Below, piece after piece: positions 1-64,000 of a stretch of 64,000 nucleotides of DNA. Where the stretch lies: the NCBI GenBank assembly GCA_051294905.1, contig CM119372.1:1550001-1614000 (forward strand), in the 5' to 3' direction. Each line of letters begins with the position of its first letter. Within the stretch, counting starts at the first letter, position 1. Below the pieces are notes generated by a model. That model searched no databases and had not been told where the DNA came from. It saw only the letters and a program-made list of their open reading frames with translations. This DNA comes from Botryllus schlosseri (lineage: Eukaryota). A program made the translations under genes and the position numbers.

Positions 1-341
1 TGTTGGCCAAACATTCGATATTGATTTGTCTGTTCGTCAAAATGGTTTACACCGAATTGCCCGTCTTTGCGATCTGAGTAGACAGGGGAACACAATGCAC
101 CCTAATTTTAATTCGTGTGCGTCAGGCATATTTGCGTTTCGTACAGCTGTTGTCTGCTCGTTCTAGCTTATACTAATGTTAAAAGTGAATTCTCTTTGAG
201 GTGGGAGGCTTGGGTCGCGAGATGCAATTCAAACTCAGATGTGGGTCGCGGTCTAAAAAGTTTAGGAGCCACTGAAATATACCGACGAACATGCTTTGCT
301 ATCAAGAATACATTATGTTCGACATGTAGCCTGGCACTCAC

Positions 342-9300: not shown

Positions 9301-11675
9301 GGAGTTACAGGTAGAGTTAAATCCGTTTTGAACATATCTTTGTCCAACATTTCTCAGTGCTGCATCTCACCACCATAGAAGTACCCGAACATGATTCCAC
9401 CGACGGCTTGGACAATTCCAAGCAGTGCCCTTGAGTGAAGGAATGGCGTGACAGTCAGCAGAGCGCCTAGTGCCAGCGAAGTAAAAGCTGAAATAATTAA
9501 TTCAAAATCAACGACGTGCTTATCCGGTCCTCATTAGATAATTCTAGTTGTCGGATTAAACTAATTAGAACTTAATGTCGGTAGTCCAATTCTAATCTAA
9601 TTTTTGAGATGTTTCTGTGATCCCATATTAATCTAATCTAATTTCTGGTTTTCCTGGGAATGCTACAGGAGAACGGTATAGTGCCAAACGTGCCAAGCTT
9701 GGTCTTAATTCAGTAAATCTACTTTTAATCTAAATTGTAAACGCTGAAAAGTTTCCAGTTGTCCGACCCTGCTCATAATCTGTCTCTCACACAAACTCCA
9801 TAGGTGATGTGACCTCTTCATAGAGGACGAGAGGGCGCTGAAAATGATTGCTCCAACAAATACTCCGACAGATCGTACTACGAGTACTACAGACACTTGG
9901 TCGATTCTTGAATCCGTGTTTACTGCCAGGAATTGCAGCGTTGGTCCGGTAATCGATATGAAAAGCCCCTGTGAAGACATCCCTTATAATTTCTTCTGCA
10001 GTACTCTTGGTGAAAAGAGTATACATTCACCAGAGGTGGTGAAAGTAAACAAAAAAGCTACCCAAGTAGAAGTGGAAGTAGCGACGCACAAATCTACTCA
10101 AGTGCGAGTATAAATTTTAAAAGCAACTTCAAGCTACTTAAGGTAGAACTAGAAATGACTGACTTTAAATGTTCTCAAATATGTAAGTAGTTTTGAAAAC
10201 AATCTCAGTTCGTTCTTATGGACTGTCAAAAGCTGCAAATTGAGCTATGCGGAAGGTACAGAGAGCGTGATTCGTATTGATGCAACACAGGAGGTGTACA
10301 TTCTCGACAGAAGAAGCATTCTTTCGCATCATGTGAGACAAATTATAGTAGTGATATGAAAATGCGATACTAACCCTTTGTTTACTCGAAGACCCCGTTT
10401 TAGGGAATATCATGACATGGCGCCATACCCCGTTATAAGGCCCAGAGCCTAAACGAAGAGCAATACTAAGAAATTGTATCGGATACAGTTTCAATACTTT
10501 GCACGATTAGTATTCCTTAATAACAAACGTTGTGTATCGTAAAATTGCCATTTAGTGCGGCTTTATTTTCGGAAAACAGAAGCATTAGCCTACTGCACTT
10601 GCTCTTATACTTCAATATGCCTATGTTGTGCAGACAAAAGAACTGAAAGTAAATAGAACTCAACGTATGATACTTGGAATTGAAAGGGAAATACAAATAC
10701 TACTTCTAAAAAGTGGAAAATATACTTCATGTCTTTTGTCCATAAATCTTCAAAGGTGGTCTGCTAAAATAGGTGTAACGTTAAAAAAGCCGGATTCTCC
10801 AGATTAGTAGGAGACGTCATGGACTGCTAGATCACGATATCGTAAGTAATTGCTAGATTGCGAAACGGTCATATTTACCATGATGAAATATTTGATATGG
10901 ACCACAATGCGGTGTGAGTGAAACCACGCAATCCGGTACGTTAATTATAGTCACTGGTACTTTCGTGAAAACACAATTGTCACTCCATAACTACTGTGCG
11001 CGAAACGCAGCATAGGTTCTGGTCTTTTCTTGACTTCTATGAATATTAAATGTTGGAACTCCGTGAAAGCAGCCCCGAAATTTGATCGTCATCATTCCTT
11101 GGGACGGAAATACTCATGACTTTGGGCAACAACATTACTCATCTCTAGCTATAATACATATGCAAACGTGCACTACAATAGCATGATTTCTCTATAAAGA
11201 CCTAAATTATCTAACTACCGCTTTCAGCCTATTGGTGTATCTCGACTTTCAATACTTTCCTTAGCAATGAAAAGCATACATAATCAGCTTCTGCAGTGTA
11301 TTCTACTTTGATGCGCTCTGTATTATTGTGCGGCAGCTTCATGCACCGTAGATTCATAGGTCGAATATAGGTGTATTTATCAGATTTCCACGATAACGCG
11401 GAGACTGAAACAGGTAAACTGAAGTTTCCTGTACCAAATCATCTGTGCCGGGTATGGGCGGGTTTTATGCTTATCGACTATTATAAGAAGCACACACATC
11501 AACAGTGCAACACAATCACGACCACGAGCAAGTCCAGGTCTGAAGATTTGGGTTATTGCGACTCTCCAACCATTCGAATTCGTAATACTCACATAACAGC
11601 TCATGGCGAGCGATGATACCGTTACGAATAGCACGACCCAAACAAGGGTTTTCTGGTCTCGCCTTTCACGGTGAC
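342..11675 (-). CDS. MFSD4: MFSD4/NaGLT1-like MFS transporter, paralog A (partial; exon 1 not located, 3' exons beyond the window start)
   Basis: GT-AG exons on the - strand: 11675-11593, 9968-9791, 9487-9371, 6875-6768, 6440-6342, 4055-3918, 481-342. They splice in frame (WVVLFVTVSSLAMSCY/GLFISITGPTLQFLAVNT.../GIEAMYLKHWSEATARPFVQ...VGAFLAPII/AKPFL.../NPVIWCF.../YMFCVSNLMVFQSFIYS). The GPTL, G-x-LAP and KPFL motifs are typical of the family, and intron phases match paralogs B-D. The symbol denotes the family, not 1:1 orthology. Confidence 0.88.
489..860. mobile_element. CTAAT/AATTAG-rich MITE, copy 1 (gene A intron 7, abutting the acceptor)
   Basis: Starts AGAGTTGCAGAAC..ATTTTCAG..TTCCAGA and has AATTAG repeats. 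It is similar to copies at 9535, 23244, 37348 and 62027. Confidence 0.72.
869..892 (+). repeat. (GGAACC)4 microsatellite
   Basis: Read directly from the sequence. Confidence 0.9.
906..3837. mobile_element. Older hAT/Charlie-like MITE apparently enclosing the 1579-3677 element
   Basis: The ends CGCGGGCGTCAAAC...GTTTGACGCCCGTG are inverted repeats, and the right part (3690-3837) matches 19050-19185. No TSD was recognisable. Confidence 0.5.
1579..3677 (-). mobile_element. Defective hAT transposon with an N-terminal transposase relic
   Basis: TIR CAGGGTTGCCAT...ATGGCAACGCTG, subterminal AAATAAGGAC repeats and TSD AATATAAT (1571-1578, 3678-3685). ORF 2347-1895 contains AAEG..FHTVKH.LSF...FPDS.VA.KFS.ARTK. 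Confidence 0.88.
4629..4927. mobile_element. Small MITE-like element with central degenerate (CCCTAA)n repeats
   Basis: CGGT...ACCG ends and inverted subterminal GAGCATGCGACAC / GTCGCATGC motifs flank AACCCT-type repeats. Confidence 0.6.
4930..6074 (-). mobile_element. Truncated Gypsy-like LTR retrotransposon: 5' LTR (6074-5832), tRNA-Leu PBS (5829-5811), degenerate gag
   Basis: The LTR runs TGTT...AACA and is followed after 2 nt by TGGTGTCAGAAGTCGGATT. The broken gag reads DQYLQRF...RACLLSSVGPETY..LRNL...KPGQSYADW..TLR. Confidence 0.8.
9535..9771. mobile_element. CTAAT-rich MITE, copy 2 (gene A intron 3)
   Basis: AGATAATTCTAG...TTTCCTG..AATGCTACAGGAGAAC...CCAAGCTTG...GTTGTCCGACCCTG is shared with copy 4. 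The left TIR is deleted. Confidence 0.72.
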
Positions 11676-18451: not shown

Positions 18452-19542
18452 ATGTAGAGCATATAATCAAGTGTCGTCTGAGCTCAGTGCGAGTGGAATG
18501 ATGCTGGATACGAGGACAGCATACTGCAATCTCGTAATCTCATTGGAGTAGTTGCATATTTGGTTGTTTTATGTTATTTTGTGTGAACTGTAACGGTTAG
18601 CTTAATATTGTGAATATATTATAGTCCTTTACAAATTTGATCAATTAGCTTGTGTTGTTGATGAAATGATTTGGCTTGTGATGCAAAAGACCTTTGTTGT
18701 TATGTACACCTTGATATGATTTTATTGGTAAATAATAATAAACACTTGATATAATGATAAAACGATGTTTATGTTGAATGCAGACAATGCTGGCAGGTTT
18801 TTTTGAACAAGCATCACAAACGACTTGCCTGCCAGAAGTTTCGCGAACGGCTGACGCGTGATGTCGAGTGACCTCGATACCACCTAAATAGATGGGGTGG
18901 AGCGGTACTATTCGTGAAATGTTCTAGCTGCAGTTTCAGAGGCGTATAACTGTATTCAACCGGCCAATTATCCTAGTTATGTCAATTCCATTGCTTGCGA
19001 TTAAAGGTGTCGCTAGAATGGAGCCCATTAATGGTAGTAACATAATATCACGTGTATAAGCTTGGTAATAAAGTATTCAAGTGAAAAACAAGGGCATGGA
19101 TTTTGAGGTAATCCGACCCGCGAGCCATCTGAAGGTTTGAATCCAGATTCCAGCCCGCGGCGCAAGTTGAGTTTGACACCCCTGGTGTAGAACCTACCAA
19201 AGTTCGTTTGTGAACGCTAACCTCTGAATTTCTGAGGCTCACACACAGAACGCGAACGTCAACCCCACGTTCACACCATCACTACTGATAACCCAAGTTT
19301 CGACAGGCATGAATACAAAAGGTAAGGATTTGGGTAGCTCATTTTGTTCATTCTCTCAACAGAGTCGTCTAATCAGAGTTACATCAAGAGACATGTTATT
19401 TGGGCTGCTGTTTGCGTGAGTGTGGTTTCACTTGCAAGGATGTGCTTCGTGAGTACTGAGTAAGCTATCTGTTGCATACACTTACTCTTACACACACTCA
19501 CTCAATCAAAATCACATACGGCTCGTCAGCTATATATGCCTA

Positions 19543-19882
19543 TAGGGTTAATATATTTCGGAAATCTGAAAAGAAAACACTTTTTCAAAATTTTCAGAAT
19601 TTCAATACCGGAGGAAAATCCTGAAAAAATGGTAAATTTTTTGCAATTCGTGGTCGGTTGACTAAAAGAAATCAACTTTCTGGCTCAACTCCCGAATACA
19701 GTTTTTCTTTCACATTATCAGTTGGTTGACTAAAAAAAATGTCAACTTCCGGCTCAGCTCCCGAAATAGCTGCCGGAGCATTGCTGGAGTGCTAATTTAC
19801 TGTATCTCAGTCGAATTCTGCCCTATATTTAACCGAAATTCAGAGGACAAATCCTCTTAAAAGAGGACGTATGGTAACCCTA
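19543..19882. mobile_element. hAT MITE (TAGGGTTACC family) in gene B intron 2
   Basis: Colinear with 15177-15477 and ends GAGGACGTATGGTAACCCTA. Confidence 0.82.
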
Positions 19883-19884
19883 GC

Positions 19885-21212
19885 CAGGCGCGTATCCAGA
19901 GCGCGAAAAAGGGGGGGGGTTGCGTTACGAAATTGGCTATTATGACGTCATCATTATGATCACTCGTCTACACGCCATGGCAAATATTTACGATATTGTA
20001 TAGTTTAATAATAAAAAGAGATTCGCGGTGAGTGGGAGATGTACGAATACGATACAGACATTGCCTGAAAATCGCGTTTCTTGCACGGTATGATTGAAAG
20101 AAATTCGTAATTGCTCACATTTAGTCATGAGCCAGCAAACGCCGTCCGTCTCCAAGCGCCTAGTTCCGGCCAGAGATGCGCGATTTTGTTGGGTTTTGAC
20201 GATATTATGCGCACGGTCGGTAGTATCGCAGCGGACGAACAAGCGCGGAATAAGGCGGTAGCATAAACGAGGGCGATCGCAATCGCCACATAGAGGTGTG
20301 GTGTGAACAGTACGTCGTACACAAATGTGTGCTTTTCGATGGCTTTGCTAGCCGTTCGGCTGAAAGTGTAGTACGCGCGAAGGTAATTAGACCTTAATTG
20401 CAAGTACGCAAGTCAGTCAATTAATACAGAGTACACACAGGGATAATAACTGGATCGGCAGAGAAACTTGTCAGCCGATATAATTACCGTAGGTTAACTT
20501 TACTACTAGGCCTACTCAATTCTCCCGTTCAGCAACAACACAGGCCTGTATTTGGACGCCAGCAAGCCACCTAACAATCGGGAACGTGGATTGCTAGGCT
20601 TGTATTTTGAAATGTGAATGCCAATCGAAAACCATTTCTCGCCAATAATCGCGAAGACAATGTGGATTTGAGAATAGCATTGTCGTACTGGTGCCGTCGT
20701 GTCTGCGTCTCGCTGATCAATTAACACGCCGTGCAATTCTTAATTAGGATTTCAAGGCGAGCAGGTGCAGCGAATTCGCGGGCGATGTTGATTGCCGACA
20801 ACTTCGTCTTTGCAATTACGTATCGCGTCGGCCAATTAGATTAGATTTTCCTAAAATGCGTCTCTCGTTTTAGCAAGGCGAGAGAGAAATCGAGGGAAGA
20901 AAGTTGACAACGTCAGCAACTACCGCTGAAATGTAGCTGAACAAGCGCAGAATTCGTATGGAATTAGCGAAATATAATGACCTATTTTATCCTTTCGACT
21001 ACTAATTCGACGCATGATTCCAAGATTTGGTATGGGTTTTGGTCCCCTTAAATAACATTAACACGTCATATTCGCCTTCTCATACGTAAAAACGAATATG
21101 TTAAACTAGTAAATTAGCAAATATTAGAGGCTATATTTTACATCAATTTTTAGGATTTTGAAAAAGGGGAGGTTCCGACCCCCTAAACCCCCCCCCCCTG
21201 GATACGCCACTG
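19885..21212. mobile_element. Non-autonomous hAT element
   Basis: CAGGCGCGTATCCAG...CTGGATACGCCACTG with TSD ACCCTAGC (19877-19884, 21213-21220). Confidence 0.88.
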
Positions 21213-21899
21213 ACCCTAGCTATAAATATAAATATCATGGATGCCCTAGTCGTAGCATAGTTAAAAAAAATCTCCCATGTTTTGCCTCGTGTATTATTAT
21301 CTAGATAAACTATGTTTAATACAGGGATTATGTGCCGGCCTAATCGGGCCGACACTTCAGTATTTGGCAGCCAACACGAATTCGGGAGTGGATAAAATTT
21401 CCACCGTAATTACTGGAAGGTCGATTGGAGGCATTGTGGGTTCATTGACATTCAGCTTTATTGCTACGAGAATGGAGAGTTCCAGACGGTTTCATAGTCT
21501 AGGTAAGCCGTTGATATAATCGACATTCCGTTTTCGAAGTTCAATTTACTATTTCAGCGGTGGCGACATTGTTGTCTGGCTTGTTGTTCATTAGCACGCC
21601 GTACATGCGCTCGATAATCACGTTGGTACTAATTCAAACGCTTGCCGGGATCACGCATGGATACTTCAATTCTGGTGATTATGATGTAGCAGAAATCTGA
21701 TTCAGTCGAAATAATCTCACCTGCTGGCTCAAGCCTGTCGTAAAATATGAATACTCTTAGATACAAGTATCATGTATTTCCTACTTATTGTATAAATATT
21801 AATTTCAATACTAATATTAAAAACAAGAATATTCTTGATGATACTGCTAACTAATATTGTCGTTTGCCCCATACAACAGGAGGTAATATCGCAATCAAC

Positions 21900-22196
21900 C
21901 GACAAGATAACGTAATGGTTAAGCGTCCGGCTTCTCGGTCAGTAGGCTGTAGGTTCGATCCCCGGCCCGGTCAGACTTGTTGGTAACGACTTCCCCGCTT
22001 GGCGCCCATGCATTACTGGGAGAGCGTGGAGGGGTGGTGTAAGACTTAGAAAGCCGTACAAGGCTATATCTGCACTTTCCTTGTCCAGCGGCATATGCAC
22101 ATCATGCACTCATGGTATGCATGTGCACAGATCGTGTGTATGTCTATCATGAGTAGGTGTACATGCCGCAAAAACATCAAGGGCAAAAATAAACTA
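21900..22196 (+). mobile_element. tRNA-derived SINE-like element
   Basis: An A-box-like TAATGGTTAAG (about 21913) and a B-box GGTTCGATCC (21952-21961) are followed by a non-tRNA body and an A-rich end. Boundaries are approximate. Confidence 0.6.
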
Positions 22197-23243
22197 TACG
22201 TCCTTTCCTATCTTTTCATGGTCTTCGGCTTTTTAATTGGAATTTTGGTACTTGCGTAATGCGTATGCTGTTTATTTGTATGTATAGTAACATGTCTCAA
22301 ATCATGTGTCCAGGTTTTACCACGTCATCAGTAACGGTGAATACCTTCCGCTCTAGGAATACAAGGATGGTATTTAAGCAAGTGCGGAGAAACACGATCC
22401 AGATCGTTCATTCAACTACATCAATTCTCGTTAAGTGTGGGGACATTTCTTGCGCCACTCATTGGTGAGATCATGGAAAGCTAGTCTTGTTTACTTTTGC
22501 CATAAAATGCACATAATGTACACACCAATTCTATTTGTTATGGGTTATATATGTATTATAATTTCTTTTGCAGCCAAACCGTTTTTGGAAATGGAAAGTC
22601 AGAACAATCGAAACTTGAGTACGCTTACACCGGACACTGCGATCGAACATTCGCAGCACTCTGGTACGTTACGCGCGCAAATCCACCCCGAATGAAATAG
22701 AAAGCATAGGAATAATTCGAGGCTCATCCGACACTCCCCTGCAATTAACGTCAGTTGCAGTACTGAACCATAAATCCGGGTTTACCAAGATACAGCATTT
22801 CGGCCCCTCACTGTAAAGAAGAGGTAAGGAGCAGCTCCATTTTACAGTGAAAATTATGAGTCAAAATGAACGTCACAATATAGTCGTGACTGCACATGTT
22901 TCGCATCTATATTCTTAGACTAGTAGCACATCTATGGCCCAGAGTTCATTGACACTATCAATTATCACTCTAAGAGTGAGACTGTTCCACTATTGAATGT
23001 TTACGTTCGATAGTTCCACATTTCATATTTACGCAATAGTATACTTGATATATTTCTTGATACCGAATGAAAGCGATTGTATTTGCAGTCTATTTTGACC
23101 CGGTCAGCTGGTCCTACATCACGATCGGTGCTATCGCTACATTTGTGTCCACAATTTTCTGCATCGTTGCCACGTTCAAAATAGAAAATATGGTCGCGGA
23201 AACAGCGGACATGAAAATCGGTAAGAAAAAAGGCTATGCAACA

Positions 23244-23600
23244 GAGAGTTGAAAAACTAGAAATTTTTCAGCTTTTCCAGATTAGATTGGATTACAATTA
23301 GAATTATGGCTGCATATTTTTTTTAATTGGATTAGAATTAGAATTATTGAATTCGATATAAACTTGAAAATTGGATAAAATTCAAATTAGAAGGAAGTAT
23401 AAAAATCACGTGCATCTCATTACAAATCAGCTTGTACAACAAGCTTGTCTCGTTTCGAATGATACAGCCCGCCCGTCGAATCTTCAGGAAAGGCAGAAAT
23501 TATATAGAATTCAAATGGGAGTCATTTCACAAATTAGATTAGAGTTAATTGCATTTCGCTCTATTTAGACGTACAGAACTTTCTAGTTGTCGCAAGTCTG
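23244..23600. mobile_element. CTAAT-rich MITE, copy 3 (gene B intron 7)
   Basis: GAGAGTTG...GTTGTCGCAAGTCTG is flanked by ATGCAACA / ATGTAACA (8-bp TSD, 1 mismatch), which implies hAT-type mobilisation. Confidence 0.78.
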
Positions 23601-26072
23601 ATGTAACAGAATAATTGGCCTACATAACACATGCAAATTATCTGTTTCTCCAGGTGAGAAATCGGAACAGCCACTGCGGGAAGTTTGGATTTTTATCATG
23701 CTAGTCGTGATGTACATGTTCTGCTGTGTTTCTGGCTTGATTATATACCAGTCATTCATCTACTCTGTCGCCGTGTCTTCCGCTTTGAAAATGAACGTAA
23801 GTTGTTCAAAAAAGCTCGCGCTGCATATTTAGAAGACCTTCTTGTGTAGTTTACGCGAGTTTCATTGTCTTTTATGACGTCACATTTCCCTCCGGCTAGC
23901 CTGTTAAAAGTGCATCAGGGCTAGCAGAATCGGAATCCGGCATTGACGAATGAAGTTTTGGTGTAACGCAAATGATATCACTAACAATCATGCATGTATT
24001 GCTAGGCAGCTATATAATCTGCCTTTAAACTGAGAAATTTAGTGGTTTGGTGAAGCCTACCGCAGGTTGGGAAATCGTTCATTTGAAACCCTCAACCTTT
24101 TTTATAATTGTGGTTCATTCACAGGAAGGCAAAGCGGCAATACTTAATTCTCTCTATTATGCTGGATACGGGGTTGGATGTGGCTCAGCAATACTTGTGT
24201 CTAGATTTGTTAAACCGTCGAAAATCATAATCGTGGATCTCATCGGGTCCTGCTCTGTATCGGTAAGTATGAGCCTGTATTCTCTGGATAAGAACCGACC
24301 TCGACAACCGTTTTTACTAATGTCTTGGATGTTGATTATAGTTATTCCATTTAATATGTTGCATGGCATGTTTATGACTTAAGGTTTAGCGTAATAGTAC
24401 TGAAGCACTAATGTGAAAAAAGGTTGGAAGCGATTAGGATGAATTTTTTATTTATTTATTACATGGCCAAGAAGATAGAAAATGGGGCTAAAATGTCAGA
24501 TGGTGGATGCTGCTGCTAGCAAGTATTGTACAAGGGCTTCTCATATTTAGGCAAGGATAAAACGGGACGTCCATTCCATAATATGTACATTTACCCAGTA
24601 TAGTAACGTAATGAGTCTGATGCAACCCCTCTTCAAGCACGGCTACAATGTTACCTGCGATAACTTTTATTTACGTCTCTGGAATGCTACTGTGTGCACT
24701 TGGCGAAGAAAATAAAGGCCTAGCTGAACCTATTGGCAAAAGTTGCAAGAAGCTTCTCTAGGCCGCGAAGTAAAAACAGCAGCTTCATGTAGCCACACTT
24801 TTCAAGATTATCACCTCGTTCATAAGCGTAACCGCGATGCACCAGTGCAGAAATCGAAGTCTGTACTGACACATATATCGAGCACACTTCAACCGGACGT
24901 AACTGTTTCCTTCAGAAACAAAACAAACAGGAAACCAGAGACGGGTATATTTCATTACAAAACCAAAGCAGGAAGATATTGTTGATTGTAAGATAGTATT
25001 CCATAAGGGTATACCAACAAGTCGATGATGGTGCGTGCATTTTTTTTTAATGTGATGGATCTTGCATTGGCCAAAATGCCGATGCTGTAAAATATACAGA
25101 TCGAGAATTACTCGCAAGATCGCAATACGAAACTCTCAGCTGATGAGCTTTGCGATATGTCAGCAAGATCTAATAATGGTGATGGGGCTAACGCGGATCT
25201 CGAACCTACCCCAAAATCTCAAAGAACATGCTCAAATACCAATTGCGCACCAGAACGACCCTGATCTGTCGCACCAATAGCGATCTGCGATAAGTGTTGC
25301 AAAAAAGTGTGTTTAGAATATTGCACGTAACAGTGTCAGCAATAAACAACGATTTCTGTAGAGCGTCGATCTTTGTGTTGATTTTTAGCCTCCTTGAATG
25401 CAATGAATCGGACAAAATACAACATGCGTCGAAAAGTCACTTGGTAATTCTAGTGTTAATAAGTATTTTCGTTTAGATAATCATGAACGTGTGGGGAGAA
25501 CATTCCGAACCAGTCATGTGGTTTGTAACCTTCGCGATAGGCTTCTTTGGTGCAACATTGCTTCCTAGCGGTGAGGCTCTACACTAATTCTTAAATTCAT
25601 TCATGTACTACTTTTCATTTGCATGCTTCGGTGGTAATTACTTGAATATGGCACAAAAACCTTTTCTATTCAATCAGTTCATGCTACTCAATCTCGTTAG
25701 TACTGATGATTTGGAGTGCTTTCATCTAACGATCGCATGACGCTACGACATGTGCACTGGCATAAATTGAAATTTAATCAAGCACAACGAAAACGAGTGT
25801 AGCTGATTGCGAGGTGAAGGTCGCCGATCTGTGATTTAAAACTACTTTTGTTGCGACAATAAAAATGCTATATCTCTCTAAACTCAATACCGTGTATTGC
25901 TGAAAGTAGCTGTACGACGGATTTGCAGGAATATCATGGTGCAACGAAGTGACAAACATGTCCGGGAAATATATTTTCGTTTATGTTGTTGTTGTTGTTA
26001 GTATTTTAAATATGGTGTTCGGCTACTATGGCCTTTTACACCAGGTCTCAAGAGTCTGATAATCCATTAGGG

Positions 26073-29000
26073 TCACAACTGTCTGCCGGTGAGGATAACG
26101 AATTCAGCCACTGGCAGTATAATCCGTGGGTCTGATAACAGTTTTTTGAGCTGAAACGGTATGCCTAGATTCGCCGCTGTAGTCTTCAAGTGATCGCGGT
26201 GGGTCGAGTAGTGTTCGCAATCAATTAAAAAGTGGTCGACCGTCTCGTTGACATCGCACGCATCGCATAAACCCGTGTCATGACACCCGATTCTGCGAAG
26301 GTGCCAGTTGAGTCTGCAGTGGCCCGTTTGCAATCTTATGAGAATTGATGAGATTTTTCGTGAAGATATGCTGCAGCTTGGCATGATTGTTTGCGAAGCA
26401 AATATTTCGCGATATTGCGAATATTCATCTGAGTCCTTGAATTCATCATTCCATCTTTGCTCACAGTGTTTGGCGATTTGCAGTCGTACTTCCTTGATTG
26501 ACAGCGAGATTTGTTCGACGTCACGAGCTGACGTTGGGCACGCTGCGTTTCTGGCTAGCTGATCAGCCTGCTCGTTTTGCCCCACTCCACTGTGCCCGGG
26601 AATCCATATTATATGCGTAATTATGTTGCTCCGCGACAGATTTCTGCAAGACAGAATAATTTGAGTGATTAAAAAATTCTCATACTGACGATTGGCTATG
26701 GCCCAAATAGCACTCAGACTGTCTGAAAAAATAGCTAATTCACACTGTGGGCGAAGATTGTTTTCAGCCCACAAAAGACCCTTTATTATCCCGACAAGCT
26801 CCGCAGTAAATACGGACACTTGTTGTGGGAGAGCGACATTAAAAGAGTACTTAACACTCTCGACAAAGAATCCTGCGCCACATCCGTGGTCGTTTTTAGA
26901 GCCGTCACTGTAGATCCTTGTGTGGTTCCTATATTTTTCATTAATGTACTGGTTGCAAGTTAGTTCAATGGCAATAGGGTGGTGTAAATTGGCAATTTGC
27001 GAATACAAACTGTCGTCCACACATATATAAATATCATCCCATGGGGGATTAGGCGGGGATTGTATGCGGTGAAGATGTAGCTCATCTAGCCACCGAAGTT
27101 TACTCAACATATTGAATGTGATGAATTGCTGAGAGTCCGGAAAAATTTCATGCCATGATTGAATTATCATGTTACGGCAGGGGTGATTTTCTCTTGCTCT
27201 AATGTTACAGCGATATTTTAGGCAGGAATACAAGTGTCTAATTTTTACGGGTTGTTCCCTGCAGGAGTGCTGTAGCGCATAGATAGGGGTACTATGCATA
27301 GCACCGCTGCATATCCTGAGCGCGGCATTCTGGATTGTTTGTATAGACCTCAATACGTAATTTGGAGAGAATAAATAAGCTTCTTGTCCGTATTCAATAA
27401 CTGATCTAATCAAGGACCTGTAAAGAGCTAGCAGGCACTGTTTTGAAGCACCCCAGGATGTACCTGCTAAAGAGCGAAGAAGGTTTAGGCGCTTAGTGCA
27501 TTTTTCAACCACCATTCGGGAATGGCTTCGGTAATTAAGTTTGGAGTCAAAGATTACCCCCAAGTATTTATATTCCGGTTGAACTTGCACGGGAGAGTCG
27601 CATAGCCGTAAATTTATTTCAGGGGTTTTTCTCCGCCGGGTGAAAAGGACTGCCGCTGATTTCTTAATGTTGACTTTGAAACCCCACCGTATGCACCATT
27701 CCGAAACACCGTCAAGTGAATTTTGAATTTTACTAGCGAGTTCCGAGATTTGTAAATCCGACTCCCATAAACAGACATCGTCGGCAAACAAGTTGACACT
27801 CGATGCAATAACATCAGGAAGATCGTTTATCATGATTGTGAACAGCAACGGGCTAATTACGCTTCCTTGGGGTGTGCCATTTTCTAATTCAAACGTATCA
27901 GACAACGTGGTACCAACGCGAACTTGGAATGTGCGTCTGCTAAGGAAAGAGTATATCCAATTAATTATGTGACCAGATAGCCCAAGCCTTTGCAATTTGA
28001 AAATCACTCCTTCCCTCCAAACCATATCGTACGCCTTCTCAAAGTCGACAAATACAGCTAATACTGATCTCTTGTTCCAAATTGACTTGTATACCTCATC
28101 GTGAAGAGACATAATACAGTCAGTGGTGGATCTTCCTGGTCGGAAACCACTTTGATTGATGTTGAAAAAATTTCGATCTGTGAGCCACCAATTCAACCTA
28201 TTTGCTACAAGTCTTTCCATAATTTTGCAAAGGTTGCTGGTAAGGGAGATTGGTCGGTACGACGACGCCGCGTTGGTTGGTTTACCCTGTTTTGGCAGAG
28301 GAATGATTATGGAGTGTCTCCAAGAGTCTGGGCACCGTTGAGATGCCCAACATTTGTTTATTGATTCGAGCAGTTTAACTAAGCAATCTGTGTCCAAATT
28401 CAATATCATCTTCGAGCATAGTCTGTCTTGGCCTGGAGATGTGTTTTTTCTAGGTTTCAGGATTTTTTGGAACTCTTCCCAAGTGAAGGGAGAATTAATA
28501 TCTTCACCGTCTATCATGTTTTCGTGCAATGCACACCGAACTTCCCTTTCAACCTCGCACCTTCTGAGAATGTGTGAAGGATCAAGGTTACGGTTGCTAC
28601 TGGCTGATGCAAAGTGCCGAGCGAGCTCATTTGCTTTGTCGATGTCTTCAGTCAGTATTCCATTGGAGGAGTCAAGTGATTGAATGTGACTCCATGTTTT
28701 CGAGCCAGACATTGATCGAATGGTCCTCCAGACTTCTGACAATTTCGAGTTGTTCGTGAGTCCGTCGCAAAACTTCCGCCAGAAGTCTCGTTTGGCTGAG
28801 AGTATCGTCTTCCTTGCTAAGGCCCGTTGCCTTCGGAATTCAATTATTTCCGTCTCGTGGAAAGTTCTTTTCATTTTCAAGTACGCCACCCTTTTGAGAC
28901 GCGTAGCTTTTGAACATTCCTTAGTCCACCAAGGAACGCATGTCCTTTTTGATGACGGTTTAGTCAGCGGGATAGTTTCAGTGGCCGCTTTAATGATCGC

Positions 29001-29858
29001 GTTAGTTACTGCGTCAATAGACAATGCATCAGCCCCGTCAGAAGCGGATGAAAAATATTTGTGTGCATTGTCTTTAAATTTGGCCCAATTTGCATTTCGG
29101 AATGACCAAGACAAGACGTGGGTCTCTTGACACTTCACGTGGAAGTTGGATTCACTAGTTATTATATAATGATCGCTTCCCAATAGTTTATCCGTCACAG
29201 AGGTTGATATCTTGTGACTGACGTCTTTCGAGCATATGGTAAGATCTAACAGAGACGTGGAACCAGGGTTCGGTCTCGATAGGTTCAATCGCGTAGGCAC
29301 CGTCGTATTGTTGACAACAAGTTCCATATCATCTATGATATGATATAGATGTCGTCCGTTCCGGTTTGAAGAAGAGGCGCTCCATAGCGTGTGGTGCGCG
29401 TTGAAATCGCCAACGATGATACTTTTCGCGCTACGTCCCGAGAAACAGCGTTGCATGACTGGTCGTGATACAACTCGATTCGGTGGAATGTAGACGTTCA
29501 TAATAGAAATATCGCCTACTTGGATAGCTAACGCTTCTACTGGATCAATGTCTCCGATGTTTATCTCGCTGAAATTTATCCCACACTTTATAAAGAGACA
29601 AATTCCTCCACCGTGGATATTTCGGTCTTTCCTCAATAAATTGTAATTAGTAATCTTCGGCGTGTATTTGGATACAAGATGAGTCTCTTGTAACGCAATG
29701 ATATCTGGTTTCGGGTTGGTAGTTTCGATGAAATGCTTAAACTCGTTGATTTTGCGGTATATTCCCCTACAATTCCATTGTATTAAAGAGAAAAGGGCGT
29801 CCGTTGACTGGTACTCGCAGTGTTTTCTGTCATGTTGCTCATACTGAGGTCCATGCAT
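26073..29858 (-). CDS. LINE ORF2: AP endonuclease - reverse transcriptase - RNase H - CCHC finger
   Basis: 1261-aa ORF. APE: WNCRG, LQETH, GDFNAH, SDH. RT: YRPISL, DFEKAYD, PQGSVISP, FADD, YLG. RNase H: YSDGS, AEL, SDS, WIPGH, NEQAD. C-terminal finger: CDAC...H...C. Confidence 0.97.
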   Translation of the reverse strand: MHGPQYEQHDRKHCEYQSTDALFSLIQWNCRGIYRKINEFKHFIETTNPKPDIIALQETHLVSKYTPKITNYNLLRKDRNIHGGGICLFIKCGINFSEINIGDIDPVEALAIQVGDISIMNVYIPPNRVVSRPVMQRCFSGRSAKSIIVGDFNAHHTLWSASSSNRNGRHLYHIIDDMELVVNNTTVPTRLNLSRPNPGSTSLLDLTICSKDVSHKISTSVTDKLLGSDHYIITSESNFHVKCQETHVLSWSFRNANWAKFKDNAHKYFSSASDGADALSIDAVTNAIIKAATETIPLTKPSSKRTCVPWWTKECSKATRLKRVAYLKMKRTFHETEIIEFRRQRALARKTILSAKRDFWRKFCDGLTNNSKLSEVWRTIRSMSGSKTWSHIQSLDSSNGILTEDIDKANELARHFASASSNRNLDPSHILRRCEVEREVRCALHENMIDGEDINSPFTWEEFQKILKPRKNTSPGQDRLCSKMILNLDTDCLVKLLESINKCWASQRCPDSWRHSIIIPLPKQGKPTNAASSYRPISLTSNLCKIMERLVANRLNWWLTDRNFFNINQSGFRPGRSTTDCIMSLHDEVYKSIWNKRSVLAVFVDFEKAYDMVWREGVIFKLQRLGLSGHIINWIYSFLSRRTFQVRVGTTLSDTFELENGTPQGSVISPLLFTIMINDLPDVIASSVNLFADDVCLWESDLQISELASKIQNSLDGVSEWCIRWGFKVNIKKSAAVLFTRRRKTPEINLRLCDSPVQVQPEYKYLGVIFDSKLNYRSHSRMVVEKCTKRLNLLRSLAGTSWGASKQCLLALYRSLIRSVIEYGQEAYLFSPNYVLRSIQTIQNAALRICSGAMHSTPIYALQHSCREQPVKIRHLYSCLKYRCNIRARENHPCRNMIIQSWHEIFPDSQQFITFNMLSKLRWLDELHLHRIQSPPNPPWDDIYICVDDSLYSQIANLHHPIAIELTCNQYINEKYRNHTRIYSDGSKNDHGCGAGFFVESVKYSFNVALPQQVSVFTAELVGIIKGLLWAENNLRPQCELAIFSDSLSAIWAIANRQYENFLITQIILSCRNLSRSNIITHIIWIPGHSGVGQNEQADQLARNAACPTSARDVEQISLSIKEVRLQIAKHCEQRWNDEFKDSDEYSQYREIFASQTIMPSCSISSRKISSILIRLQTGHCRLNWHLRRIGCHDTGLCDACDVNETVDHFLIDCEHYSTHRDHLKTTAANLGIPFQLKKLLSDPRIILPVAEFVILTGRQL

Positions 29859-31192
29859 TCACTATTTATTTCCTCTGCGGCTGCAGAGTGCATGGTCGTT
29901 GTTCGCGATGACGTGGACTCGTTAGGAACAAATCTCTGTACTTCTTGAGGCTGTCGCATTGCAATTTGCGGGCTAGCAGGTGACGATATGGCAGTTTTAT
30001 TGGTTTGACCTTCATCGACATTGTGGACTGGCGTGGGCATCGGTATACCGAAATTCTCTCCGGCGGACTGAGCGATAATTGCGTCAATTTGCGGAGCTTT
30101 TCCATCCGCCATAGACAGTAGCGTGTTCTTCATAACCTCGGCTATAAAGTTGAAAAATGTTGCCAAGGGGATCGTGATGTTTCCGTCGCTAGTGACCGCG
30201 AGAGGTGAAGGTGCGGAGCTTTTATTCATGACAGTATGGGGCGATTTCGCAGCGTTCAATATGTTCGAGGTTGAAGCACTCGCGCGATGAAAATTCTTAT
30301 TAGGTTCATACACTGATCCCGGCAAAGTAGGAAATTCGGAATGCGATTGGATATCAGGAGCCTGTGCTTCTCGCAGATGCAGCTGTCTCGCCTGCCAATA
30401 ATTGATTTTTTGATCAGTCATTATTGCGTTTATCTTCGCCTCTTGTTTGTACCGTGTACATCCGCCGTAACTCGCCGAATGAGCCGCTCCGCAATTAACG
30501 CAATACGGTTCATTTGAACATTTCTTGTCTACATGCCTCATCCCACATCTGGTACATCGCTGAGCACTACGACAGTGTTTGGACTTATGACCATAACGAT
30601 TACAATTGAAGCAACGGGTTGGGGGTGGGTTATACGGACGTGTCCTAAATCTAAGAAATCCGATATTGACTATAGGCGGTAGTATGGTTGAACCAAAGCA
30701 AAGCAACACAGATCTACTAGGCTTTGATTCTCCGTCGGATCTATACGAAAACCGGCGCACGTACACTACGCGTTGATCACCCAAGATCTGTTTCAAATCG
30801 TCGTCTGACATATCCAAGGGTACATTAGCAATAACTCCACGAACCTCCGGCGCTCTCACTTTATGGACTTCGGCGCGAACTTCCACTTTTTTGTCGTTAT
30901 CTCCAAGATTATTGCAAGCCAGGAGATTAGATAGCTGTTTGGCATTGCTGCACTTAACCCACAAATCACCCGATGGCAAAACTTTGATGTCACTATAAGG
31001 CCCCCCAAGTACACGATGAAGCCCGTTGTTAATGGTAATCGGGTTATATTGACGTAAAGGTTTCGTTATTCCTTTGACCACTGCAGCCAAATTAACTTCC
31101 GCGACTACAGTATCACTAGCCATCCCTTTAGACGCAGGACCTTCTAAAACATCGCTAGCGGAACGCTTTTGTCCGCCGCTTACGCTAGGCAT
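29783..31192 (-). CDS. LINE ORF1 (gag-like nucleic-acid-binding protein, three zinc knuckles)
   Basis: 469-aa ORF with CFNCNRYGHKSKHC, CTRCGMRHVDKKC and CVNCGAAHSASYGGC, preceded by the RGVI.NVP region typical of I/jockey-group ORF1. Confidence 0.93.
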   Translation of the reverse strand: MPSVSGGQKRSASDVLEGPASKGMASDTVVAEVNLAAVVKGITKPLRQYNPITINNGLHRVLGGPYSDIKVLPSGDLWVKCSNAKQLSNLLACNNLGDNDKKVEVRAEVHKVRAPEVRGVIANVPLDMSDDDLKQILGDQRVVYVRRFSYRSDGESKPSRSVLLCFGSTILPPIVNIGFLRFRTRPYNPPPTRCFNCNRYGHKSKHCRSAQRCTRCGMRHVDKKCSNEPYCVNCGAAHSASYGGCTRYKQEAKINAIMTDQKINYWQARQLHLREAQAPDIQSHSEFPTLPGSVYEPNKNFHRASASTSNILNAAKSPHTVMNKSSAPSPLAVTSDGNITIPLATFFNFIAEVMKNTLLSMADGKAPQIDAIIAQSAGENFGIPMPTPVHNVDEGQTNKTAISSPASPQIAMRQPQEVQRFVPNESTSSRTTTMHSAAAEEINSECMDLSMSNMTENTASTSQRTPFSL

Positions 31193-31335
31193 CTGATGCC
31201 AAATATGTCAGTTGACGAACTATTTCTATATTCACTATACTGTTATAACAACAAATATAACGACTACACCTGGTTTAGAGACGTAAATCTCTTGTCGATG
31301 TCGCAGCAGTCGTACGTTCCGTTGATTAGGATTGG

Positions 31336-31370
31336 ACGTCCTTCCTCGACGACGTTCACCACTCGAATGA
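31336..31370 (-). promoter_or_regulatory. Internal Pol II promoter of the LINE: Inr (TCATTC) + DPE (GGACGT at +28 to +33)
   Basis: The - strand reads TCATTCGAGTGGTGAACGTCGTCGAGGAAGGACGT. With A+1 at 31368, GGACGT falls exactly at +28..+33. Confidence 0.7.
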
Positions 31371-31932
31371 TTTTCGTTTATAACACGGGCGCAGCTATCG
31401 GCGCATCAGTGCTGGTCCCACTAGCAGGTTTTCTTTACCAGGAAAATCCGTTTTCAGCGGTGAGTGAACTTAAGTTGCTGTACAATACGATACTTATCTG
31501 AAACGGGTAATGCTAATATATAGGTAGGGATGGTGTGAACGTGAGGTTCATGTTCGCGTTCGGTCCGTGAACCTCGGGAATTTAGAGGTTCACGTTCACA
31601 AACGAACATTGGTAGGTCGACATTTATTGCATTTCGACTGCGAGCCACTCTATGCATGGCGCTGGCAGCATAAAAAATCAACACTAAACGAACATGCACC
31701 TGACAATCGCAAAAATTATAGATGCTTTGTTGCAAAAGTTTGCTAGATATATCCAGCTTTCCGTTTGTGAATATTTAGCGACTCTCTGCTGTGAGCTTGA
31801 TCACACAACATCAAGAGCGAAATACACTACATGTAGGTAGTCAGCGAATGATGTTTATTCCACCAATCAATGAAATTGATATCGTTCTCTGATGTAAAAA
31901 AATCTATCAGGCGTACGGGGTCAATCTCGATT

Positions 31933-33300
31933 TCTGTTCTGTTCTGTTCGGTTTATTAGCAATTTATATCAGTTCAATACACCACAAAAATTGCGATACA
32001 ATGAAAAGATAGGAAGGTGTCGGAACGACTTTGAGTAGTCTACCGAATCAGACACCCACCTTGGCCTAGGGCAGAGGTCTCAAACACGCGGCCCGCCAGA
32101 GCATTTTGTGCGGCCCGCGACGGCATTTTAGATTTAAGAAAGGCTTAAGTGTCACATATATCTTTTCAGGTTATAAAGTAAAAATTCCCTCTTAAATTGC
32201 TCCGAAAGCCTTAAACTATTCATCGAATTTCACTATCACATCAATTGCAAACGCTACCGCAGTGGAAGATTCACTATTTCGCCACATGTCCAATTCATGA
32301 TGACAAAACCTGACCCTTAGACGATTCGTGACTGAAATTTGTGAGTTGAACTTGGACATGACCTTTCTTAGGATTAGTCAGACTCGGGCTAACTCAATAG
32401 CAAAATGAAAATGACTCGAGTGGACTAGGAGTGACTCGGAATGCCGTGAATTTGTTAGAACCATGGACGCAAAAAACTAATCGCGTGTCAGGGGAATAGT
32501 AATAAATCAGAAGGTCGCAGCTTGGTATTTCGTAACTGAGCAAGTAGTTCTGGCAACCATTGGCAATCTGTTAGTTACATCTTCGGTCGCTAAACCATGT
32601 TAAGGCCACTTAAGGGTACCGAGTACCGTAGTGGTACATTCCAACGATGTAACAGCAATTGGCCGTTCGGCGTTCCGACATTTCAATCACTAGGACACAT
32701 TCAATAATATATTTATATTATTTTCTGCTCCTATATATGAAGATATTGGGCCATGAGATTATTAGTCTATAACTTATCAGAAGTATACTCGAATCCTGGA
32801 TTGGAATTACTATGCTCAACTTGAAAATGTTTTTATATCTGATCAGTCTCTATTATCAATCTGTTGAATTCAAAATATTCATTGTAGCTGAAAAATTATA
32901 ACCCGATAGCTTTTATGATGGCATCATATATTTGTCCGCCCATCAAGTACAACAGCAATTATATTCAAATAGTTATAAGTGTGATGATTCTTTTTGTGCC
33001 AGTCCTAAATTGATACATGAGTAAATCACATTTTGACGATGTGTGTTTACTCTCAGTCTGCTGGATCGGCTCACTCTCAATAGGACAATTCATTCCCGCC
33101 AAATAAGGCCTACTTGGAAAGACATAGAATACCCCTATAAATGCTGCGGCCCGCGGCGTCGCCAAAACTGGAAAACTGGCCCACGAGCACATTTGAGTTT
33201 GAGACCTCTGGCCTAGGGCCTAGGCAATGTAAAGAATAGGCATGCACACTGAATGAAAAGTAACAGAAGAGAGTATAGAAAAGCAAGCAACAAAAAATTT
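31933..33300 (-). mobile_element. Retroelement 3'-end fragment (AATAAA + (GAACA)n tail on the - strand), split by 32072-33210
   Basis: 31951-32070 plus 33219-33290 join to match the uninterrupted copy at about 41581-41765. A partial opposite-strand copy lies at about 51025-51110. Confidence 0.7.
32072..33210. mobile_element. Non-autonomous hAT (Charlie-like) element
   Basis: CAGAGGTCTCAAAC...GTTTGAGACCTCTG with TSD GCCTAGGG on both sides. Confidence 0.92.
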
Positions 33301-35934
33301 GGTGGCATATCACGAAAGGCGAGATCGATAAGTCAGGTCGTGATCCGGTAATCTTGATGACGGACTGTAGTATTTCATATGTTTATTGTATCATAAAAAC
33401 TAAAGCCGTGCGATTGAGGAGTTGGCTACTGCTGTATAACTTATTAATGGGGAAATATCGGCAGCAAGTAAAGAAATCCGTTTTACACTCTGCTCAATAT
33501 TAACGTAGCAATACGCTGACGCCGAATATATTGTCCGGTCTGACCTATATAGACTGTGAAGACATAAGCTTTTACTCCCTTGCATGTCCTCGTCGAAAGA
33601 TATTGGTTTTATGGGATTATTATATCATTTGATTGCCTCAGTTGATACATTTGGCGATGTTTAAAACGTCAATATGTACTTCAGCATCGTGGCATTATGT
33701 GGCCCTAGCTGTCGCTAGGTATCGTGTACGGTAGTTTAATATATAGTCAATCACTTCACTGAAATGTAGGGTTGCAATTAGCAATATGAAGTCACGTGAC
33801 GTCATTAGGTTCACAATACCATCCCTGCTAATAGGGACCAGTAGTTTTACTTATATTTTATGTGGAATAACGCTATCATGTCGAATACAAACTGTGACAC
33901 ATCAAATTTGTAAAATAATTTCTCAACTTCATCAGATGTATCTCGTGACTGGAGCCAACATTGCGACCGTCGTGTTTTTCGCTCTGATGAATGTATTCAG
34001 ACGTTACGCGCGAAAGAAACGCGGAGAAACTCCTTCCTGAGAGTTCGGAACACGCGACTGTGTGTAAAAGCCAAGTTCGAAATGGAGCGTATTCGAGTGT
34101 CGTTGATCATTTCGTAGAGTGTGAAGTTGATATTTTATCACATATAAAAACTGGGCCTATCCCGCAACTGCTGCGTATACTCTGCGAAATAGGCAGACTT
34201 ATTTCGTCATTGATATAATCACAGTCTCTCACATGTGACAACAATAGGATCAAAAGGCAACTGGTCTTCCATTGCATGTCCCCTCATAGAAGTTCGTAAG
34301 TTTGTTTTTGGTTTGGCTGTAGACCTATTTGGATTCAGCGAGGGATATGTAGAGTTCAAGATATTCCTGGATTCAGCGATCCGTTCTAAACATTTTGTAT
34401 TGTTTAGTATCGTATCATTCGTATGTATGCTTCTACGATTATGAGAGCGCAGGTAGTGGAGTTATCTCACGGGTTCATCTTAAGTTGACAGTCGTCCATA
34501 GTCGAGGTACTGTCTTCCAAGAGCGAACACCTAACTGCACGAAGGAGTACATTCCCAGATTTACCGCGTAAGCCCCTTCGGCATATACACCTAGTCACCT
34601 ATAGCTATGTCAGTGGTTCTCAAAGTATGAGGCGTTCGAATAACACGAATACACACCAATAGGCTGGTATGCATTCGATGTTCTCCTACTGCAAATATCG
34701 TCCCCTTGGTAACACTATACGTCGATTGGCAGTAACGACTAACGAATCAGCTTATATGACCTCCATTGTTGTTTTCAACGAATAGCGGTACTACCAACCA
34801 TAGGGAGCCAACTGGATTATTTTGGAAAAACCCAAACGCGAACAAAACCTCGCGTCACTTTAGAAATATAACAGAACGACAAACGGAATGCTGCGCATTG
34901 TATTTTCGGATAACTTCAATCGAGAGAAATTTAATTATTGTCCATATTTCTTTCTCAAATGACTGCCTTGCGAAGTTGATACGAGTACCAACTATATGGA
35001 CAGCTGTCGTTACAGCAGCACTAGCGCAACTATGGCGGTGCCAAATGACGCGCTCTCCCCGATCTTTAAAACCGCGTGAGGCTATTTTCATAGGCAACGT
35101 CACTGACAATCTGTGAAAAGTCAAACCCGCAATTTTCGTAGCAGATTACCGGAGTGCAATGAAAGGATATTTACTGTTGTCTAAATATGTTGCAATTAAT
35201 AATAGCCGGTAGGAAAATGAACTGCAGGCTGACATCAGCACAAAATCCACTGCTTTTGCGTAACTTAAATGTACTGTCGTGAGCACGAAACATTGCTCTT
35301 ATGCAGTTTATTAATTCGGCTTTAATGAACAAATACCTTCAGTGCAAGAAACAGATAGTGGTAGACAGTTTCCAATCAATACAGCCCAAGCCAGTATTAC
35401 GACGAATGAACAAAAAAGAGCAATCCTAATCACTAAGAAACTGAATCAGCCCCAAATTAACACCAAATATACAACATATACACATAATATGGCAATAAGG
35501 TCCGTCATGGAACAAGTTCGGCCTCATATATCATGGAACCAACACCAGGATTCTTTCTTGGGCGTGTATCCGTCAGCGAATTATGAAGGTTGGTAGGCCT
35601 ATATACCGAACACGACCCATTCCTATATTATAAACGCGTCTACTGTAAAATAATGCTAGTTGACGAACCTAGTTTTATTGCAATAACGATACAAATACAC
35701 GTTTTATCCATTAATGACCACTGACCACGCTCGTACACGCTTCGAAGCGGATTTATGAGAAGTCGCGCTTTATCAAATGCATTGGCCTACAAACAATGCA
35801 CAGCTTATATCAAACAGTGATGTTTGTAATGCTAACACGCATTATACACAATTGCAGTTACGTTGAATCAAGTCTGCTGCCGTATACTGTTGTGTGTGTC
35901 GGTAAGAACGAACGATAACGTTTATAGTCCGGAC

Positions 35935-63403: not shown

Positions 63404-63739
63404 GTGAGTTATTTGTGGGGGATATATCACGTAGGTAATTCCAGAGTCGCTGAAAAATGTTTTACCCCAATACAGGTGATCAGTAACGAATTCTTTCTAC
63501 TTTTTTCAAGTACCCATGGTTTTGCGTACTTACTGAAGCGGGTATTTTTTGATCACTTTTAAGTTCCTCTGGTCTCCTAGGAGCGTACGTCATATATCCT
63601 CCAATCTCCATGGTTTCTCTGCTTCTTTGTTATGACAGTGTACACACCTTCTCAGCATGCGAGGGGCTAATACTGCGATGATTTAGTCAAATAAGTTACC
63701 GTCTATACCAGGAGCCAGTAGGTAGTCATAGCTGCATGA

Positions 63740-63890
63740 CAGTATTGGGATGACTCGAGTCACCTTTTACGTATGACTTAACTTGACTCGAGTCACTTTA
63801 TAAAAATGACTTGACTTGACTTGACTCAGCGAAATGGGGATTGACTCGTGACTCGGAGCAAAATTTACGAGTCAATTTCAAGTCGTCAAG
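63740..63890. mobile_element. Left end of a DNA transposon with (GACTT/GACTC)n subterminal repeats
   Basis: CAGTATTGGGATGACTCGAGTCA...TGACTTGACTTGACTTGACTC. The other end is not in the window. Confidence 0.55.
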
Positions 63891-64000
63891 TAATCGGTGT
63901 CGACAAAAATAGCTGTATGCTTTACAAATGTTCTGATTGTTCTCGATACGCTGGTGTGAGGGCGAAAAATCTCATTCATTCAATGATTTTGTGTTTTACT

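Follow-up and report, generated by a model that had tools for sequence, protein, structure and literature searches.

What becomes of a gene when a complete retrotransposon comes to lie within one of its coding exons, and how long ago did the retrotransposon arrive? These questions are raised by a stretch of 64,000 nucleotides from Botryllus schlosseri (GenBank assembly GCA_051294905.1, contig CM119372.1, positions 1,550,001 to 1,614,000, forward strand; hereafter the window, to which plain coordinates refer), in which exon 11 of a transporter gene, here called gene B, is interrupted by a long interspersed nuclear element (LINE). We consider it very likely that an I-like LINE has entered exon 11 of gene B, with a likely null allele as the result, and that the insertion is young and probably unfixed.

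The initial annotation of the window had exon 11 begin at 25929, cut by an antisense LINE, and resume at 31382, and this arrangement is borne out by the sequence. The features at the insertion site, including the target-site duplication (TSD), are as follows:

25929-25984, plus strand: exon 11 of gene B, first part, 56 nt, after ...tttgcag; reads (G)ISWCNEVTNMSGKYIFVY
25973-25984: TSD, left copy, ATTTTCGTTTAT, encoding the I-F-V-Y codons of exon 11
25985-31369, minus strand: full-length I-like non-LTR (non-long terminal repeat) retrotransposon (LINE), 5,385 nt, antisense to gene B
31370-31381: TSD, right copy, ATTTTCGTTTAT, identical to the left copy at 12/12 positions
31382-31459, plus strand: exon 11 of gene B, second part, 78 nt, beginning NTGAAIGASVLVPLAGFLYQENPFSA; gtgagt donor after 31459
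50490-50623, plus strand: uninterrupted exon 11 of paralog C, 134 nt, for comparison

Removal of the element and one TSD copy leaves 56 + 78 = 134 nt, the length of exon 11 in paralog C, as had been proposed, and the insertion point falls exactly between codons 385 and 386 of gene B. The duplication is perfect, also as first described; its identity ends at the 13th base, and the chance of a 12/12 agreement at a fixed pair of positions is ~6e-8. The evidence supports a true retrotransposition into a coding exon, the gene being intact in its other parts. Presumably, the LINE, which encodes an apurinic/apyrimidinic (AP) endonuclease, a reverse transcriptase (RT) and an RNase H, would have inserted into exon 11 in the antisense orientation by target-primed reverse transcription.

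The sequence that preceded the insertion is preserved in a stray copy of the exon. A genome search with both flanks located, 77 kb downstream at C2:1658062-1658337 (L023:4062-4337, minus strand), a fragment of 92.5% identity that comprises exon 11 from 25942 together with the start of intron 11. This fragment aligns from 25942 to 31515 as one ungapped block across the insertion point, and thus removal of the element and one TSD copy restores the original sequence. No alternative haplotig with an empty site was found in the assembly, the stray fragment being the sole representative of such a sequence there. No other exons of the transporter family were found near the stray copy, which is flanked on both sides by copies of a ~95-nt repeat resembling a miniature inverted-repeat transposable element (MITE). 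The stray copy may have originated by exon capture or transduplication, or it may be the leftover of a partial duplication. The MITE-like repeat also occurs in the window at 31525-31617 and 19202-19288, with matches in both orientations and 612 first-look candidates in the genome.

Gene B is one of four tandem major facilitator superfamily (MFS) transporter paralogs in the window, and at least five such paralogs lie within ~100 kb. Its model was derived from homology and a splice-site search, without RNA:

19309-34040 (stop), plus strand: gene B, 12-exon MFS/NaGLT1-like transporter paralog of 445 codons after removal of the element and one TSD copy
19309-19321, 19363-19448, 21325-21502, 21558-21674, 22357-22464, 22574-22663, plus strand: gene B exons 1-6
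23089-23220, 23654-23800, 24129-24262, 25477-25570, 25929-25984 + 31382-31459, 33936-34040, plus strand: gene B exons 7-12

All 11 introns of gene B are of the GT-AG type, the 11 other exons are open, and the 445-codon frame is open after removal of the element. The statement that the rest of gene B has no stops therefore holds, but it carries little weight because only ~2 substitutions are expected in a 1,338-nt coding sequence at a divergence of 0.17%. The exon structure of gene B is that of paralog C, and the encoded protein is colinear over its full length with the homologs P0003 (41.4% identical, 442 aligned positions) and P0026 (28.5% identical, 445 aligned positions). The latter, from Styela clava, bears the NCBI name 'sodium-dependent glucose transporter 1A-like' and is the nearest named homolog of the host gene, while P0003 passes the Pfam MFS_1 model with 45.7 bits against a cut-off of 33.4. 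Exon 3 of gene B, scored as a single exon and not as part of the spliced protein, reaches 15.8 bits with the same model, below the cut-off. The likeness to NaGLT1/MFSD4 lies in the full-length colinearity with both homologs; in contrast, gene B and paralog A lack one conserved charged residue, and the assignment is one by sequence.

The transporter array exceeds the window. Paralog A (window 1-9974, minus strand; L026) extends beyond the left end, where its 3' exons lie at ~-2.7 to -3.8 kb, and the opposite strand holds a further partial paralog at -18.4 to -13.6 kb (L027:1583-6435, plus). At the right end, paralog D (window 61636-64000, plus strand; L019-L020) continues to ~+78.8 kb.

The element carries two open reading frames (ORF1 and ORF2) of 469 and 1,261 amino acids (aa), both of them open as the initial annotation had stated, and ends in a triplet tail:

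25985-25999, minus strand: element 3' tail (AAC)5, five triplets in 4/4 full-length copies
31192..29783, minus strand: LINE ORF1, 469 aa, from the ORF list; three Cys-His knuckles at residues 194, 213 and 231
29858..26073, minus strand: LINE ORF2, 1,261 aa, open; AP endonuclease, RT and RNase H

The 5' end of the element reads CATTCGAGTGG... and the 3' end ...ACT(AAC)5, and the same ends are present in the full-length genomic copies L002, L003 and L004. The two ends are dissimilar, although no dedicated search of the termini for terminal repeats was made. The ORF1 knuckles, identified by regular expression, have the forms CX2CX4HX4C, CX2CX3HX4C and CX2CX3HX6C and show weak similarity to retroviral nucleocapsid knuckles (E 0.004-0.08); ORF1 gave no Pfam match at E<=0.01 and no match to Pfam zf-CCHC at E<=1. 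ORF2 overlaps ORF1 by 76 nt in a different frame. Its RT matches Pfam RVT_1 (1.5e-37, 129.8 bits against a cut-off of 29.6) and has the FADD motif at residue 697. The AP-like endonuclease is N-terminal (Exo_endo_phos_2, 1.3e-20; Exo_endo_phos, 9.2e-13), and a Pfam RNase_H domain (9.2e-12, residues 979-1106) is located downstream of the RT. Residues 25-787 of ORF2 align with the solved human L1 ORF2p (E 1.7e-26).

The element combines an RT, an N-terminal endonuclease, TSDs of variable length and 5'-truncated progeny with a common 3' end, as do LINEs of the AP-endonuclease type, and it has the RNase H after the RT and the Cys-His (CCHC) motifs in ORF1 that characterize the I superfamily. By its architecture the element is best described as I-like, and it is not filed here as a member of the I clade. 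In animal L1 elements, ORF1 is of the coiled-coil/RRM type and an RNase H is lacking. Membership of the L1 clade was considered and rejected, as it is contradicted by the RNase H domain and the ORF1 zinc knuckles.

A comparison with well-studied elements leads to the same description. The Drosophila I factor, in the parts of PMC4122939 that describe it, is 5.4 kb long, has a pair of long ORFs bearing cysteine-rich motifs, AP endonuclease, RT and RNase H, and ends at its 3' side in triplet repeats. With reference to that description, the 5,385-nt element has the same order of parts, the same ORF layout, cysteine motifs and a triplet-repeat tail. It differs in that the tail is (AAC)5 rather than TAA repeats, ORF1 and ORF2 overlap by 76 nt, and the host is not Drosophila. 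Human L1 resembles the element in an ORF2 with AP endonuclease and RT, in TSDs, in 5'-truncated progeny and in gene disruption by exonic insertion. In contrast to L1, the element has an RNase H after the RT, zinc knuckles in ORF1 and a triplet tail rather than poly(A).

The age of the insertion was judged from the other copies of the element. In a LINE search of the whole 495-Mb assembly, 40 of the 352 first-look candidates were scored, and the counts are thus lower bounds. At least 52 genomic matches to the element were found, many of them starting at the 3' end. Four copies among the matches listed, the gene B copy included, are full length and uninterrupted, with TSDs of 12, 10, 11 and 14 bp and unrelated flanks. 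A genome-wide search for near-identical copies had been suggested as a check by the initial annotation; the closest copy among the matches listed is L002 on contig 17, which is 99.59% identical to the gene B copy with 22 differences and no gaps. The corresponding identities of L003 and L004 are 98.0% and 95.4%. Seven young fragments were examined beyond the full-length copies; five consist of the 3' end without the 5' part, as expected from 5' truncation, and two of the 5' end only. Both ORFs are full length solely in the gene B copy among the four full-length copies, as ORF2 of L002 is interrupted near its start, ORF1 of L003 is shortened, and both ORFs of L004 are shortened.

The 22 differences between the gene B copy and L002 divide into 9 private to the former and 13 private to the latter. 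The private divergence of the gene B copy is therefore 9/5,385 nt, or 0.17%, and these nine states are absent from the 10 other copies compared (L002-L006, L008 and L010 together with L028-L034, which are overlapping sets) at the sites that they cover. Three of the nine substitutions are synonymous and six change an amino acid, the replaced residues being constant in all other copies covering the sites. By the same nine substitutions, no daughter of the gene B copy was found among the 10 other copies. The 3:6 distribution looks like neutral change since the last replication under selection, or like copying errors, and on this reckoning the insertion is young but not brand new.

Contigs and reads of four runs (X4, X5, X6 and X21) were compared over 19200-34300, a region in which intron repeats dominate the tables; the four runs comprise 979 joints and more than 144,000 pieces beyond those listed. 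X4 derives from the source sample, X5 shares its organism label with the source although it belongs to a different sample and study, and X6 is labelled organism B. Record 12 of X5 is 721 letters long. Its letters 1-492 lie on 25470-25972 (exon 10, intron 10 and the first part of exon 11) with 30 other letters and 25 gaps, and at 25972|25973, precisely where the TSD begins, it departs from the reference. A filled allele would continue past 25985, and the 229 letters left in the record are too few for the element, which points to an allele without it. It is likely that record 12 represents such an allele. A single X5 contig covers 31484-31495; its depth value of 88.8 equals that of record 12, and it stops near 31561.

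The four X5 contigs on gene B (records 9-12) differ from the reference at 52 of ~1,845 letters. This haplotype divergence is ~15 times the private divergence of the element, and the insertion should therefore postdate the split of the two haplotypes. On the scale of allelic divergence in the species the event is young and probably not fixed, so that the insertion may well be polymorphic. The earlier description of the insertion as 'possibly polymorphic' is met by suggestive evidence, namely one X5 contig that leaves the reference at the start of the TSD, but this evidence is not decisive. A minority contig of X4 (depth 13.4 of 33.4) was considered as a second allele, and hence as a sign of heterozygosity, and was rejected because the stray copy has the same letters at 31484 and 31495.

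A metagenome scan for a 30-nt stretch of the first part of exon 11 gave 0 matches. The X6 contigs show 0 differences to gene B at 21583-21908 and 22484-22851, at a depth of 2, and the X6 contigs of the element are near-identical; they derive either from a very close relative or from B. schlosseri DNA within the X6 sample. No X6 contig at the insertion junctions is present among the rows listed.

The insertion lies within the second-to-last predicted membrane helix. Read-through from the first part of exon 11 adds 24 foreign residues before an in-frame stop, for a total of 409 aa, and the product lacks the last two helices. Such a truncation would make the haplotype null for gene B, and from the predicted product gene B is most likely null on this haplotype, with loss of its function. 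The RNA run X21 (bulk, ~6% read) has a mean depth of 0 to 0.54 on the bins with gene B exons, which is too low to judge expression or splicing; on the element its depth reaches ~3 at >=90% likeness, for which any copy could be the source. The antisense 5' untranslated region (5' UTR) of the element contributes one further reading frame:

31196-31501, plus strand: chimeric ORF, 101 aa, antisense 5' UTR of the element in frame with the exon remainder

On the plus strand this frame stays open from 31148 into what is left of the exon, and the antisense 5' UTR has in-frame AG acceptors at 31212 and 31281 that could follow exon 10. The initial annotation had warned that gene predictors could hide the insertion by way of an ORF at 31169-31501. 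The open frame and the two in-frame acceptors agree with this warning, but the ORF that begins with ATG is 31196-31501. Automatic gene models may thus bridge the element along its open antisense frame and so yield a spurious chimeric protein, a point to be borne in mind in annotation.

The same frame bears on a very unlikely alternative in which there is no knockout, because the element is mostly spliced out as a new intron or a chimeric exon replaces exon 11, either of which would give an in-frame protein. The two acceptors in the antisense 5' UTR offer the second route. For the first, the frame is preserved by 48 canonical GT-AG pairs across the element; with one of them, 26000|gt to ag|31395, the exon peptide exceeds the native one by a single residue. 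However, 0 of the 48 pairs restore the native peptide, the membrane helix is altered in every variant, and, judged by eye, weak donors (gttgtt, gtattt) are combined with acceptors that have no good pyrimidine tracts; no RNA read supports such splicing in X21, in which depth on the gene B exons is near zero. An assembly artefact, by which a LINE copy was misplaced into the exon, is hardly conceivable. It would fit the lack of a junction-spanning source-sample contig among the rows listed, but a mis-join would not yield a perfect 12-bp exon duplication at termini common to other copies. Furthermore, the element is at least 22 substitutions away from every other copy in the assembly and thus is not a pasted duplicate, and the assembly has no alternative contig with the gene B locus. 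The remaining alternative, unlikely but less so than the other two, is that the LINE landed in a paralog already in decay or no longer needed and that the insertion may be fixed, in which case it would be a step toward a pseudogene within a redundant array rather than a segregating knockout that struck a functioning gene. The presence of at least five paralogs within ~100 kb favors this explanation, as does the position of gene B as the paralog most diverged from outside homologs: the identity of exon 3 to P0003 is 39% for gene B, 57% for C and 74% for D. The neutral-looking private changes of the element (3 synonymous, 6 not) would likewise suggest that it has been resident for some time, and 10 of 37 strongly conserved family columns are lost in gene B. 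Charged residues conserved in >80% of 17 family members are among the losses: in the exons at 23654-23800 and 24129-24262, the helix that follows the central loop has a change of E to L and a GxGRG-like motif one of R to C. Yet all 12 exons are open and the splice sites are all canonical, and the X5 contig points to an element-free allele. In addition, the E to L change is common to gene B and the intact-looking paralog A (336-485), and it therefore looks like a subfamily trait rather than decay. The residue changes in gene B and paralog A may mark a subfamily of altered function.

Several observations weigh against a young, probably unfixed insertion that disabled a working gene. The retention of only 27 of the 37 conserved columns and the loss of conserved charged residues are two of these. 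The nine private substitutions imply that the insertion is not brand new; its earlier designation as 'very recent' is correct insofar as the event is young, with the closest listed copy at 99.59% identity, but is too strong at a private divergence of 0.17%. Since six of the nine changes alter amino acids, the open frames are no proof of an active element, and the label 'transposition-competent' draws on the open frames and motifs and is weakened by these nonsynonymous changes and by the lack of a daughter among the copies examined. The joint 25984->31382 is absent among the joints listed, and no source-sample reads or contigs spanning either junction are present among the rows listed. Should record 12 and the 88.8-depth contig of X5 belong to a single contig, 37 letters would be left unexplained between 25972 and 31370. 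Finally, at 31484 and 31495 the X5 and X4 letters coincide with those in the stray copy of exon 11, and the contigs may merge both loci. The insertion of a young I-like LINE into exon 11, with gene B most likely null as a consequence, is the reading that we prefer. A bolder proposal is possible but doubtful: that the gene B copy is still mobile and its family currently active, that the disrupted allele segregates in wild populations as a natural null of one member of the five-gene NaGLT1-like array, and that the locus is a recurrent substrate of transposon-mediated exon shuffling, with the exon copied 77 kb away between ~95-nt MITE-like repeats.

Two further features are found in the introns of gene B. 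A ~294-nt repeat resembling a short interspersed nuclear element (SINE) occupies 21903-22196 (plus strand) in intron 4 and has 3,180 first-look candidates in the genome. Its RNA depth in X21 is ~775 per orientation, with letters of the template-switch oligo just before 21903 and poly(A) after 22196, and it gave no match in Rfam and tRNA scans. In intron 11, a ~1.4-kb block at 31934-33371 is missing both in the colinear stray copy and in a further copy of the repeat around it, and many contig joints skip it; a nested transposon insertion is the probable explanation.

The destruction of genes by LINEs that insert into exons is well documented and belongs to textbook knowledge. Insertions of the I factor into the white gene are classic insertional mutations, and the textbook L1 case is the insertion in factor VIII exon 14. 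The disruption of gene B is a new instance of this kind and not a surprising one, and it changes nothing in what is known of LINEs or MFS transporters. It does provide a fully resolved example of LINE inactivation, in which the exact target site and the exact TSD are defined and the pre-insertion sequence is kept in a paralogous fragment. The locus shows recent activity of an I-like LINE family in the B. schlosseri genome. If the empty allele is confirmed, the insertion would serve both as a naturally occurring presence/absence marker and as a natural null in one transporter paralog.

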